A stretch of DNA of 64,000 nt from Eledone cirrhosa (Eukaryota): the NCBI GenBank assembly GCA_964016885.1, contig OZ024757.1:17980001-18044000 (forward strand). The letters run 5' to 3'. Positions 13,677 through 63,038 of the stretch are shown piece after piece. Both the position numbers and the translations under genes were made by a program. Numbering within the stretch: the stretch's first letter is position 1; each line of letters starts with the position of its first letter. The notes under the pieces were generated by a model. It saw only the letters and a program-made list of their open reading frames with translations. It had not been told where the DNA came from and searched no databases.

Positions 13677-13841
13677 AAGTTTTAATATAGATGAGATTCT
13701 ACAGGACTAGAACTGTTTCATTTCTAAAGAATGTAACAGTTCTAGTCCTGTAGAATCTCATCTATATTAAAACTTTTATACTCTGCAATGTATTGAGTAC
13801 CTTTCTTACTGTGGTTACCCCCGATTCAACCCGGAATAACG
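13677..13841 (+). mobile_element. Fold-back hammerhead-derived mini-element (Penelope pLTR-like) in (TA)n
   Basis: Inverted arms ~13677-13722 and ~13730-13775 centred on TTC-TAAA-GAA, the stem II of the intact hammerhead at 20151-20199. Confidence 0.75.
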
Positions 13842-14002
13842 TATATATATATATATATATATATATATATATATATATATATATACATATATATATACGT
13901 CAACACACACACATACATACATATATATATATATATAGTTTAATAAATAAACAGCGAACAAAATACTGAAAAACGAAGAAGCAGTACAAACGGTATCAAT
14001 AT

Positions 14003-14087
14003 TTGTTTCTACTTTAGGCACAAGGCCAGCAATTACCCCAGTTCATTACTGGTACTTTATTTTATCGACCCCGTAAGGATGAAAGGG
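14003..14087 (-). mobile_element. SINE family A 3' fragment
   Basis: Matches 6914-6995. Confidence 0.8.
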
Positions 14088-14187
14088 ACAGTCAATGGTA
14101 TTAATATTAGTTTCACACAGTTATATATACGTATATAGATATATATATATATATACAAATACACACAGACATATATATATATATATA

Positions 14188-14510
14188 TGTAGGAGGTGAG
14201 TTTTATTGTAGTACAATAAAGCAATGCAGATATCGGATAAGAAGCACTCTACAGTTTGTGGGACTGGAGTATGCATAATATAAGATCAAAAGATGGTTAA
14301 AGGAGTTCAATATATTTTATTATGCGCATTTCAAAATGTTGATTTAAAACTGCACTATCAACAAGTGTTTTTTTTTTTTTAGCCTTCATATCATGTTCTC
14401 CTGTTTTATCTGATGAAAACACAAATATTATTGTTTGATGATGTTTGATTTTGAAATGCGCATAATAAAATATATTGAACTCCTTTAACCATCTTTTGAT
14501 CTTATATTAT
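14188..14510 (+). mobile_element. Penelope pLTR-like mini-element: inverted 3' segment (14188-14336) plus direct hammerhead-bearing copy
   Basis: 14276-14336 is the reverse complement of ~14449-14510; direct relative at 38829-39081; (TA)n on both sides. Confidence 0.8.
14404..14470 (+). ncRNA. Type I hammerhead ribozyme motif
   Basis: ttttat CTGATGA [long imperfect stem II] GAAA tgcgca TA ataaaa: 6-bp stem I, palindromic ATGCGCAT stem III. Confidence 0.8.
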
Positions 14511-15359
14511 ATATATATATATATATAACATGCTTTGTGCACTGTAATTTCGATGGCAAGAAGTTCATTTAGCAGATGTGTGCACCGTGATGTCATTGAC
14601 TGCTGTAGTGCAGTGCAGTGTATTATATTAAAGTAGTGTAGTGTTGGAGGTAGCTCAGTGTTGTTCTTAAACAACTGTACCCTTTAATTGACGACTTCGT
14701 TAGCAAAAGAAATAAAAGGCAACTTCTCTTAATTATTGGTAAAACTTACAAACTGTTCACAATACGATTAAAGTAATTTCCGCTCACGCAACTAGATTGA
14801 GTACTTGGCTTGCTAGCAGCAGCTGAATCCTTACACACACAAACACACACATACAGACACATACAAACACACACACACACACACACACACACACAAACAT
14901 ATATATATAGATACATATATGTCTGTGTATGTTTGTGTGTGTGTATATATATGTGTGTATATATATATATATATAAAATGTTTACATACATATATACATG
15001 TTTTTGTGTATATATATGTGTGTGTGTGTGTGTGTGTGTGTGTGTGTGTGTGTGTGTGTGTGTGTGAGTGAGTGTGTCTGTGTGGACAAATGTTTACATA
15101 TATATATATACATATATATACTTGTTACATACCTATGTTTTTGCGTGTATGTATGTATATATATATATATATATATATATTTACACAGAGAGAGAGAGAG
15201 ATAGAAGAGAAAGAGCGAAAAAGAGAGAGTGAAAGAGAGAGTGAAAGAGAGAATAAGATCGAGGGCGTGAGAGACGGGATGAGAAGGAGGGAGATTAGAT
15301 ATAATGAAATTTAAAAGGGGGGTGATAGAGTAAGAATATATTGAGTGGAATTATAGTGA

Positions 15360-58900: not shown

Positions 58901-60572
58901 TCTATCTATTTTTTTTGTCTGTGTTTGTTTATGTATATATATATATATATGTCTGTGTTTTTGTATGTTTGTATGTGTGTATTTGTGTATGTGTGTGTCA
59001 GTTGTCAGCGTTGTTCAAATTGTGAAGGTTATTATTATTGTTTGTGTTGCAGTAGTTGTAGTAGTTATTGTTGTCACTGCAATAATTGGTACACATGTTG
59101 ATGTTGTTATTGTTGTTGTTGTTGTTGTTGCTACTGTAATTGTGCTTCCTTGTTCAGGTCAGCCATTAATGTTTTCATTGTTGTCAGTATCTCAACTATC
59201 AATTATACTCGATATTTTTTCCCAGTGTTTATCATTTCATTTTTTTCTCCTTCCCAATTGATCGAATAAAATAAACTATATTTGAAATACCAAATATTAA
59301 CGATTTACGCCAAACCCATAACAGATATTTAAGAGCACATCTAGGTTTTTTAAAAGGACCGTTGAACAGTTTTTTGTCTAATATTATTTTTAGTGATGTA
59401 CACGAAAAGATTTCTTGTATTTTAGCCATAAACTTAAAACATATTCTTAAAACATATGCTTCACCCTAACTATATTCTATCTATCTATCTACCCTTTACG
59501 CCTCTCTATCTATATGTATTTATATCTATCTAAATTACTATATATATATCACTATATATCTTCATATTTCTATTTCTCTCTATCTATATTACTATATATA
59601 TATGTATACATATATATATATACATATACATATATATCTACATATCTATATTTCTATATATATATATCTACATATCTATATTTATATATATATATATATA
59701 TTACTCTATATCTACATATCTATATATATATATATATATATATATATATATATATCTATATATCTATATTTATATATATATATATATTACTATATATCTA
59801 CATATCTATATATATATATATATATATATATCTACATATCTATATTTCTCTCTCTCTCTCTCTATATATATATATATATATTTCTATATATATATATATA
59901 TTTCTCTATATCTCTGTTTCTATATATCGCTATTTCTATCTATGTATCTATGTATCTACGTATCTATATATCTACATTTTCTATATATCTATACATCTAT
60001 CTATATGTCTATATATCTATATACCTATCAACGCTCACATTACAACGACAACCAACACCACTACCAACACCACTACCAACACCACTACCAGCACCACTAC
60101 CAGCACCACTACCCACACCCCCAACTACCCAATTACACCTCTGTCTACTACCACAACTACTATTCCGAAGACAAGCACCAGCATTACCACAATTATCTAT
60201 ATTTCCACTCCCCCACCACCAGCACCACCAATATTTCTAGGACTATTATTATTAGAGTGTTGGGTTGGCATTGTCTCTTTAGAGGGTCGGAGAAGGCTTA
60301 ACAGGATGTGTTCCAACTTAAACCCTCCACAGTCAACTTCACATTCCTTACCCCCAAGTTTGATAATATATAGTACCAGTTAAGTATTTATGTAGTGGTA
60401 AGAAACTCTAAGGAGAGCTGGTGAGCAGAATGTCATTAGAGAAGAAACCCACCCCCAACCGAATGTTTCCCCATCTTAACTATATATAAATATATTTCTT
60501 GTTTATGTTTCCTAAAATTTATATTTGAGTAGTGAATATTTGACTTTGTATCACAAATCAGATTTTATTTGG

Positions 60573-60664
60573 GTGTATATGGGTATATATTAATGAACCT
60601 CGTTATCTATGTATGCTCAATCATACATAGATAACGAGGTTCATGCATATATACCCATATACAC
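60573..60664. repeat. ~92-bp hairpin (inverted repeat)
   Basis: GTGTATATGGGTATATATtaATGAACCTCGTTATCTATGTATG-ctcaat-CATACATAGATAACGAGGTTCATgcATATATACCCATATACAC. Confidence 0.9.
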
Positions 60665-60673
60665 GCAGTGTAT

Positions 60674-61888
60674 ATGGGTATATATGTACAGTTCTTACTT
60701 TTGGTATGGGTATATATGTACAGTTCTTACTTTTGGTATGGATATATATGTACAGTTCTTACTTTTGGTATGGGTATATATGTACAGTTCTTACTTTTGG
60801 TATGGGTATATATGTACAGTTCTTACTTTTGGTATGGGTATATATGTACAGTTCTTACTTTTGGTATGGGTATATATGTACAGTTCTTACTTTTGGTATG
60901 GGTATATATGTACAGTTCTTACTTTTGGTATGGGTATATATGTACAGTTCTTACTTTTGGTATGGGTATATATGTACAGTTCTTACTTTTGGTATGGGTA
61001 TATATGTACAGTTCTTACTTTTGGTATGGGTATATATGTACAGTTCTTACTTTTGCTATGGGTATATATGTACAGTACTTACTTTTGGTATGGGTATATA
61101 TGTACAGTTCTTACTTTTGGTATGGGTATATATGTACAGTTCTTACTTTTGGTATGGGTATATATGTACAGTTCTTACTTTTGGTATGGGTATATATGTA
61201 CAGTTCTTACTTTTGGTATGGGTATATATGTACAGTTCTTACTTTTGCTATGGGTATATATGTACAGTTCTTACTTTTGGTATGGGTATATATGTACAGT
61301 TCTTACTTTTGGTATGGGTATATATGTACAGTTCTTACTTTTGGTATGGGTATTTATGTACAGTTCTTACTTTTGGTATGGGTATATATGTACAGTTCTT
61401 ACTTTTGGTATGGGTATATATGTACAGTTCTTACTTTTGGTATGGGTATATATGTACAGTTCTTACTTTTGGTATGGGTATATATGTACAGTTCTTACTT
61501 TTGGTATGGGTATATATGTACAGTTCTTACTTTTGCTATGGGTATATATGTACAGTTCTTACTTTTGGTATGGGTATATATGTACAGTTCTTACTTTTGG
61601 TATGGGTATATATGTACAGTTCTTACTTTTGGTATGGGTATATATGTACAGTACTTACTTTTGGTATGGGTATTTATGTACAGTTCTTACTTTTGGTATG
61701 GGTATATATGTACAGTTCTTACTTTTGGTATGGGTATATATGTACAGTTCTTACTTTTGGTATGGGTATATATGTACAGTTCTTACTTTTGGTATGGGTA
61801 TATATGTACAGTTCTTACTTTTGCTATGGGTATATATGTACAGTTCTTACTTTTGGTATGGGTATATATGTACAGTTCTTACTTTTGG
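60674..61888. repeat. 32-bp minisatellite ATGGGTATATATGTACAGTTCTTACTTTTGGT, ~38 copies
   Basis: Exact 32-nt period; the lack of stop codons explains three overlapping ORFs. Confidence 0.97.
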
Positions 61889-62403
61889 GCACGAATTCCT
61901 TTGTTCGAATTTAACTACCGAAATCACGTGTTATGATCTGCGAGAAGATCTGCGAGAAGTTTTTCCCCTTTTCATTAGAGGCCGAGTGAGAGAATGTCAC
62001 GAACTGCTAGATAGCTTATCCAATAGTGTAAGCTGGCTCACACTGAACGGAATTATCGTATAATAGTATAGGCTAATCTTGCTGAAGACGTGCAATAGCC
62101 CGATTACGTAAGTATCAGCTGAATTTGTGCGATTTCATGAACATTGCAGAAGTAAAATCTGTATTTGTAAAGTTATATTACACAGAAACGATCGTCTGGG
62201 AAGAAGATATTTACATCTATCTCTAACTAAAAATACAGCCAACTGTCTATTTTAAGCTACATGTGTGCATTCTGAACAGTTGATCGTAGCTGCATAACTG
62301 CAATTCGCCAGATTCTTTGAGTGGGCGAGACGCTGGCCGAGGGACACTGAATTTATACCAGCGATCTTCGTTACTTGTTATATATATATATATATATATA
62401 TAT

Positions 62404-63038
62404 ATAGGAACGAGTAGGACCGCGACGGTTGAGCTCAAGCCGTTTCGACGGCTAATTCTGGACTGAATTAGCCGTCGAAACGGCTTGAGCTCAGCCGTCG
62501 GGGTCCTACTCGTTCCTATTACCCAGTCTACTACCCTAAGTATTGAGTACTTTGGTGCGTTATGGTCCACCTGGTTCCTTACCACATTTCCTTCGTTATA
62601 TATATATATATATATATATATATAGGAACGAGTAGGACCCCGACGGCTGAGCTCAAGCCGTTTCGACGGCTAATTCTGGACTAAATTAGCCGTCGAAACG
62701 GCTTGAGCTCAGCCGTCGGGGTCCTACTCGTTCCTATTACCCAGTCTACTACCCTAAGTATTGAGTACTTTGGTGCGTTATGGTCCACCTGGTTCCTTAC
62801 CACATTTCCTTCGTTATATATATATATATATATATATATATATATAGGAACGAGTAGGACCCCGACGGCTGAGCTCAAGCCGTTTCGACGGCTAATTCTG
62901 GACTGAATTAGCCGTCGAAACGGCTTGAGCTCAGCCGTCGGGGTCCTACTCGTTCCTATTACCCACTCTACTACCCTAAGTATTGAGTACTTTGGTGCGT
63001 TATGGTCCACCTGGTTCCTTACCACATTTTCTTCGTTA
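62404..63038 (+). mobile_element. Three tandem ~195-bp fold-back units (62404-62598, 62622-62816, 62844-63038) separated by short (TA)n
   Basis: Each unit is a ~116-bp palindrome plus an ~80-bp tail and contains a hammerhead 3' half GAAAC-ggct..agcc-GTC. Confidence 0.88.

Follow-up and report, generated by a model that had tools for sequence, protein, structure and literature searches.

How do short non-coding units come to lie in a TA microsatellite as two head-to-head arms of unequal length, and what sets the point at which the shorter arm stops? The question is raised by a 64-kb stretch of the Eledone cirrhosa genome (NCBI GenBank assembly GCA_964016885.1, contig OZ024757.1, positions 17,980,001 to 18,044,000 of the forward strand), hereafter the window, in which the GC content is 30% and (TA)n arrays predominate; coordinates below count from its first letter. 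A preliminary description made from the letters alone had read these units as Penelope-type insertions into (TA)n, in which a single cDNA, folded back on itself, becomes linked to the target through TA microhomology at an internal TAT. The units are likely ends of Penelope-like elements (PLEs), and we give a probability of roughly 0.6 to the reading that head-to-head PLE 3' ends in (TA)n are made in one event, with both cut strands priming reverse transcriptase (RT) at two family-fixed sites on the RNA.

Unequal arms and a family-fixed short end

Seven independent two-armed insertions are present in the window (D at 13678, B at 14189, A at 16598, D at 20090, C at 28862, A at 54814 and A at 62404; Table 1), the tandem triple at 62404/62622/62844 being counted as one event. 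Each pairs a tail-bearing with a tail-less arm between (TA)n runs, while long–long and short–short pairs number zero, so the asymmetry proposed across families holds in 7/7. All seven show the inverted, 5'-truncated copy with a one-sided tail that marks PLE units, with tails of 77 (A), 87 (B), 60 (C) and 74 nt (D), a range of 60–87 nt that exceeds the published 30–40. The four junctions first described were recovered within 1 nt (B 14510 versus 14275/6, C 29437 versus 28922, A 62404 versus 62519, D 20209 versus 13767/8). The D example needs amendment, in that it pairs two different insertions, the short arm of 13678 itself ending 8–13 nt further on than that of 20209.

The arms differ in how far they reach towards the 5' end. 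Those of 13678 are 92.8% alike across 97 bp and those of 20090 do not overlap, while the short arm of 14189, which begins at the 5' start fixed for the family, includes the hammerhead motif (14402-14472) and ends at the short site, reaches about 105 bp further 5' than its long arm. The 62404 unit is a 116-bp hairpin centred in hammerhead stem II, with the 3' half of the hammerhead core and the 77-nt tail; the units of the triple are 97.9% alike and likely arose by unequal exchange in the TA runs.

The short end is fixed within a family and does not fall at just any TAT. The family A arm offers three equal TAT sites, of which the first is used in 3/3 independent events, and the family B arm has 16 TA-like sites, of which both B events use the same one. 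Short ends also occur at 56069 and 24060 without an inverted partner, the latter giving no clean score for a TA match. A constant distance from hammerhead cut to short site was considered and rejected, the distance being about 15 nt in D, 20 in A, 46 in B and 160 in C. The outer site appears imperfectly fixed in family D, where the long ends (20078-20100 versus 13835-13850) lie about 5 nt apart.

A TA match at the short end

At the junctions first described, the short arm continues exactly into (TA)n for 3 nt (B 14510), 4 nt (C 29437), 3 nt (A 62404) and 5 nt (D 20209), and a 3-nt match is also found in A 16598 and in A 54814, the latter against the family reference. The proposed TA match is thereby borne out at 3–5 nt in 6/7 two-armed insertions and 4/5 families, and all four scored family matches end in the same TAT phase. 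Copies of one family share a fixed site and so do not test TA enrichment independently, for which reason the family was taken as the unit; the null was a break anywhere along each family's own arm, with the repeat phase either random or free. Under this null, P(match ≥ 3) per family is 0.058–0.14 (random phase) or 0.115–0.267 (free phase), which gives P = 7e-5 or 1.1e-3 for 4/4 families matched. With B2 included, for which the null was taken over from family B, P for at least 4/5 families is 4.9e-4 or 6.6e-3; all these figures are post-hoc. Among nine metagenome loci, one unrelated PLE locus (L006) alone gave a junction test: judged against the 5' copy of the same locus, the 3' copy there runs into (TA)n over a 5-nt match (null P 0.058). 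L001 and L002 either terminate in (TA)n or cross it with no continuation for comparison, and the other six had no usable junction.

Since equal TAT sites are ignored, the TA match is evidently not what positions the site. Since matches occur in 4/5 families and always end in TAT, and L006 matches over 5 nt, pairing with the cut target is suggested, and we consider it somewhat better than even that the match at the inner start site plays a real role of this kind.

Probable Penelope-like identity of the units

The assignment to PLEs follows from hammerhead-like motifs in the units and from a family C end that is common to a Neptune-type open reading frame (ORF) fragment at 22675..24060, and on these predicted features we regard the units as likely PLE ends; the proposed Penelope-type origin and (TA)n targeting are upheld. 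The fragment reads, in order, RT thumb end, CX4CxxC linker, GIY-YIG with CCHH, and a 3' region with a hammerhead-like motif at ~23810-23856. Its ORF (22675-23544, 290 aa) finds its best match in P0001, labelled Octopus vulgaris (58%, E 1e-74), and can be aligned with the RT-bearing homologues P0001-P0004, the RT core being missing from the window copy; for this ORF only, a telomerase-like RT and a GIY-YIG nuclease are thus predicted within one reading frame. Pfam matches are weak (RVT_1 E 0.004 in P0001, GIY-YIG E 0.008 in P0002), and Pfam gave no match for the 290-aa window protein itself. The C-terminal nuclease, the CX2-5CxxC linker and the CCHH motif are those of Neptune/Nematis. Two other clades were ruled out for this ORF, Naiad, a clade without a canonical hammerhead, by its N-terminal GIY-YIG as against the C-terminal nuclease here, and Hydra by its lack of the CCHH motif present here; an N-terminal-nuclease (Naiad-type) partner may nevertheless have served families A, B and D.

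The alignment of family C with the 3' part of the ORF-bearing fragment begins at the family's 5' start, takes in the hammerhead and ends at an ATG; the family C short site lies 26 nt past this ATG, with the frame open as far as the long end. Family C alone is linked to the fragment by alignment; A, B, B2, D and E were assigned by motif and architecture. Hammerhead cores (CUGANGA/GAAA/UH, stems I and II) were found by script in B, B2 and D, which hold 6/9 of the script's matches, and by eye in C (29228-29279, +) and the ORF-bearing copy; family A retains only the 3' half of the core. Folding gave both stems in B and C, not D, with z-scores of -0.4 to -0.8, no better than shuffles. Neither the 150 of 587 Rfam matches listed nor the 5/5 of a further search included a hammerhead, those listed being sub-threshold hairpin, microRNA and small nucleolar RNA matches only. 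A type I (minimal) hammerhead is thus a predicted motif of the terminal repeat, and PLE repeats typically carry minimal hammerhead motifs whose helix III is palindromic (PMC4209133). Target-site duplications at these insertions are masked by (TA)n, and no empty site was encountered.

In the metagenome relatives L001 and L002, (TA)n is entered about 21 nt after an ATG resembling that of family C, a spacing of 21–26 nt across all three. A GCGTGT motif 5' of the putative start ATG is likewise common to L001 2565-2600, L002 1740-1790 and window 29388-29437. At L002 1771-1861 a 19-nt TA run, inside or between tandem units, is followed by a frame reading LFLAKGLNFVPT. We take LFLAKGLNFVPT to resemble the N-terminal motif of PLE ORFs. 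Related-locus scans of genome and viral contig sets found no relative.

Sequencing reads of family B

The read test covered family B only, with four runs placed on the sense unit 38800-39092, whose landmarks are the fixed 5' start (~38826), hammerhead motif 38887-38957, short site 38995 and long end 39082. The material comprised 4583 contigs (X15, which may be the assembly's own sample), 55 contigs (X1), 3 contigs (X19) and 5201 restriction site-associated DNA (RAD) reads (X22). Among the 17 of 186 loose ends listed, those on the 3' side in X22 stand at 39083 (1222 reads), 38995 (296), 38992 (187) and 38982 (146), and those in X15 at 38982 (33 contigs), 38995 (8) and 39083 (5). The loose end at 38982, which has a poor consensus in X22 (agreement 0.44) and whose branch in X15 and X1 runs on into different AT-rich sequence, was set aside as likely another subfamily. 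Inside the unit, the family B reads thus cluster at one of its 16 candidate sites. Summed depth in X15 passes from 1.83–2.04 M upstream of the short site to 0.80–1.17 M in the tail. In X19 the short site was not seen among the 3 contigs.

The reads, too, place the 5' start near 38826. In three of four opposite-strand read joints this start (38826-38840) is linked to an arm that bears the tail, at 38986, 38988 or 39052, and seven X15 contigs have a 5' boundary at 38988. Several long arms thus stop 8–10 nt past the short site in family B reads, as does, at about 9 nt, that of the window A copy at 16598. Such stops in two families suggest a barrier at this point, of the kind expected from a second primer.

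A two-ended priming model

The model starts from four direct observations: the way the insertions are built, a short site that is fixed, its match to TA, and arms that reach unequally far in the 5' direction. A Neptune-type GIY-YIG nuclease would cut (TA)n; one target 3' end would then act as primer at the end of the tail and the second at the inner site, and there 3–5 nt of UAU-type pairing with the target may help to set the register. The tail-side cDNA would meet the inner primer and either halt there or displace it, and the two cDNAs would be joined by a match of 1–3 nt or via a natural hairpin, which would be stem II for A and D and the palindromic 5' start for B and C. Both outer junctions would be priming sites, rather than one start and one repair joint. 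This two-ended, twin-priming-like reverse transcription fits the insertions better than a fold-back. In 3/7 (14189, 16598, 20090) the short arm has sequence that the long arm lacks, and in each of the three it is the tail arm that is truncated; between 62404 and 54814 the asymmetric loop of family A changes direction with respect to the tail. Symmetric copies are centred on hammerhead stem II (A, D) or on the palindromic 5' start (C, and B in reads), places at which the ends of two cDNAs would be complementary. The variant 38958 C>T, a minority form at ~19% of X15 depth, is present in both arms of 14189, and the two arms of 13678 have in common a variant missing from 20090; these shared variants favour a single template for the two arms of one insertion.

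Several points weigh against this reading. A fold-back fits equally well in 3/7 insertions (13678, 28862, 62404), and a palindrome, once inserted, can be deleted on one side or have its loop inverted, which could mimic unequal arms. The short arm of 13678 matches (TA)n over only 1 nt exactly (or, allowing one mismatch, matches a second TA-like site), and the B2 short end at 55036 shows no match when compared with its diverged relative 32470. In the reads, X1 (another species label, 55 contigs) has no loose end at 38995, RAD counts derive from few loci (joints with 1–2 read starts), 150-nt reads leave the far end of joints unseen, with short arms truncated near the end undetectable, and the arm at the fourth opposite-strand joint (38828-38897) is ambiguous. 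RT initiation by a Poseidon element in vitro was non-homologous relative to the cut DNA (PMC11167929).

A stronger form of the model, in which twin priming is obligate in TA-targeting Neptune-type elements, with an evolved inner UAU pairing, a tail-cDNA stall 8–10 nt on and sealing via stem II or the palindromic 5' start, is held tentatively and at less than even odds.

Alternative explanations

The two start sites could be fixed by protein and RNA structure alone, as for Poseidon PAc, with the TA match incidental and without a role in priming. The in vitro result just cited speaks for it, as do arms that are 50–68% AT, the exceptions at B2 and 13678, and the choice after the fact of only five families and L006. 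It sits poorly with a P of 5e-4 to 7e-3 for at least 4/5 families, with the single TAT phase in which all four matches end, and with the 5-nt match of the independent L006, and we consider it unlikely.

The fold-back of the preliminary description has a tail-primed cDNA that hairpins and serves as its own template, with TA microhomology linking the product to the other end of the target; unequal copies would arise by later one-sided deletion and loop inversion. It would account for centres in natural hairpins in 4/7 (13678, 28862, 54814, 62404), for variants common to both arms and for the two TA-like sites, 8–13 nt apart, used by family D, and junction palindromes have been interpreted as self-priming (PMC3846280). 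A short arm made in this way must duplicate a portion of the long arm; those of 14189, 16598 and 20090 do not, and this and the flipped loop of family A disfavour the model. It requires a secondary change in at least 4/7 insertions, with all three deletions on the tail arm. It also leaves unexplained the long-arm stops beyond the short site, the short ends that lack an inverted partner and the choice of one among three equal TAT sites in A. We judge it slightly less probable still than an incidental match.

A master hairpin unit per family (MITE- or SINE-like), amplified whole with junctions inherited from one ancestral event, is very improbable: it would suit the amplification of the 62404 triple as a unit and the identical short ends within families, but central junctions vary within a family (A 16598, 54814, 62404; D 13678, 20090; the four read joints of B) and variants are shared between the arms of one copy, not among short arms across copies. 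A miniature inverted-repeat transposable element (MITE) or other DNA transposon with terminal inverted repeats was rejected on the unequal ends and the central junctions that differ between copies.

Comparison with known systems

The standard PLE unit has an inverted, 5'-truncated pseudo-long terminal repeat (pLTR) and an optional one-sided tail of 30–40 bp (Pen2a_Av, PMC3846280; Fig. 2 legend of PMC8557442; restated in PMC8969392). One RT start site lies on either side of the tail, and the PLE protein cuts each of the two strands and extends it (PMC11167929). The arm asymmetry, part of the junction rule that was suggested at first to be perhaps undescribed, is this published tail with two RT start sites; the TA match at the inner site may be new. 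The units here share with endonuclease-bearing PLE units the head-to-head arms, the one-sided tail, the palindrome at the inverted junction, the hammerhead-like motif and, in family C, a tail that overlaps the putative ORF start; unlike them, the tails reach 60–87 nt and most copies are just short non-coding ends. In the accessible text of PMC3846280 and PMC8557442 an inner-site TA match is not mentioned.

Poseidon PAc of Anolis (PMC11167929) likewise has two fixed ends around the tail, an AT-rich target and extension of both strands. It initiates at an AC-rich stem-loop without target homology, whereas a 3–5 nt (TA)n match accompanies 4/5 families here, and the two start sites are not tied to inverted arms in the part of that paper at hand. 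The (TA)n targets and the CX2-5CxxC linker preceding GIY-YIG are shared with Neptune/Nematis, Naiad and Hydra; the linker has been tied to (TA)n targeting, Poseidon lacks it, and octopus Naiads with (TA)n preference appear in File S1 (PMC8557442). In LINE-1 twin or dual priming a second target end anneals internally on the RNA and yields inverted fragments, sometimes with internal deletion (PMC2837659); its internal sites vary and its arms rarely overlap, unlike the family-fixed site and often fully overlapping arms seen here. The resemblance is one of proposed mechanism alone, and the elements are not an L1.

The literature search found no account of TA matching where the tail starts, nor of twin priming in PLEs, older key papers lying outside it, and the accessible portions of PMC9977147, bioRxiv 2026.07.22.740005 and bioRxiv 2024.12.14.628481 hold nothing further on the junction.

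Features and other repeats in the window

Table 1. PLE-related features of the window (window coordinates)
Feature	Coordinates	Strand	Description
Family D, two-armed	13678..13841	+	inverted short arm left, long arm and its 74-nt tail right; centred in hammerhead stem II
Family B, two-armed	14189..14510	+	inverted long arm, truncated 5' (87-nt tail and ~60 bp), followed by short arm
Family A, two-armed	16598..16753	+	inverted long arm ends ~9 nt beyond short site; short arm right
Family D, two-armed	20090..20209	+	inverted distal 44 nt of tail, 13-14-nt duplication, complete hammerhead-like motif (20150-20200), short end
Neptune-type PLE, 5'-truncated	22675..24060	+	ends at family C short-site motif in degenerate (TA)n array
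Family C, palindrome and tail	28862..29437	.	516-bp palindrome 28922-29437 (98.45%), 60-nt tail on left arm
Family B2, single long-type end	32470..32641	-	hammerhead-like motif (32635-32575)
Family E, tail-only fragment	33629..33686	-	between TA runs, 5' join on ATATA match
Family B, single long-type unit	38826..39082	+	reference for reads
Family A, two-armed	54814..55012	-	loop orientation relative to tail arm opposite to 62404
Family B2, single short-type end	55036..55146	-	TA match 0 against 32470
Family B, single short-type end	56069..56180	-	site identical to that of 14510
Family A, single long-type end, diverged	56503..56629	-	
Family A, tandem triple	62404..63036	+	two-armed units separated by (TA)14-16

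Family E has a hammerhead-like motif at ~6082-6125 (in 6082-6200), and its tail-only fragment at 33629-33686 includes 40 nt of tail. Further TA-flanked repeats occur in two copies (19608-19900 with 55760-56013; 5687-5934 with 55400-55657) or singly (56272-56441); some hold partial hammerhead-like cores, and they are possibly extra PLE families, with no scorable short end. Two isolated hairpins, at 12603-12689 and 60573-60664 (arms 85% and 91%), lie away from (TA)n.

A near-intact GC-rich long interspersed element (LINE) at 25540-28700 (-), with endonuclease-like frames and RT (RVT_1 E 9e-23) in several frames, lies between a TA array and the family C palindrome. An abundant non-coding repeat, 85–95% alike and flanked by (TACA)n/(TA)n, is found at 6203-6643, 12868-13675, 32766-33105, 34297-35118, 39601-39822 and 56838-57453, with a 71-bp piece of it present 14 times at 39771-40767. 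A family resembling short interspersed elements (SINEs), possibly akin to octopus SINEs, occupies 6768-7097, 13998-14095, 41327-41548, 44940-45121, 51927-52146 and 63195-63538. Young minisatellites are present at 10420-11252 (33 bp, 25 copies), 50995-51566 (141 bp, 4 copies) and 60673-61888 (a 32/64-bp array).

Implications

The feature is confirmed as real: it is the known PLE architecture in new members, and the Penelope-type family assignment of the preliminary description stands. The TA match at the inner start site is possibly unreported, so that the remaining novelty is a testable junction rule on few families and a modest mechanistic refinement. If the inner start site does not pair with the target, the window is a good display of known PLE insertion anatomy; if it does so in TA-targeting clades, this would give a sequence rule for site choice that could be tested in genomes and in vitro. 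The origin of the inverted ends, tail and microsatellite bias of PLEs has been named an open question (PMC8557442). Obligate twin priming, if true, would provide one mechanism for inverted pLTRs, one-sided tails, junction palindromes and microsatellite bias, and would depart from the homology-free initiation of Poseidon.

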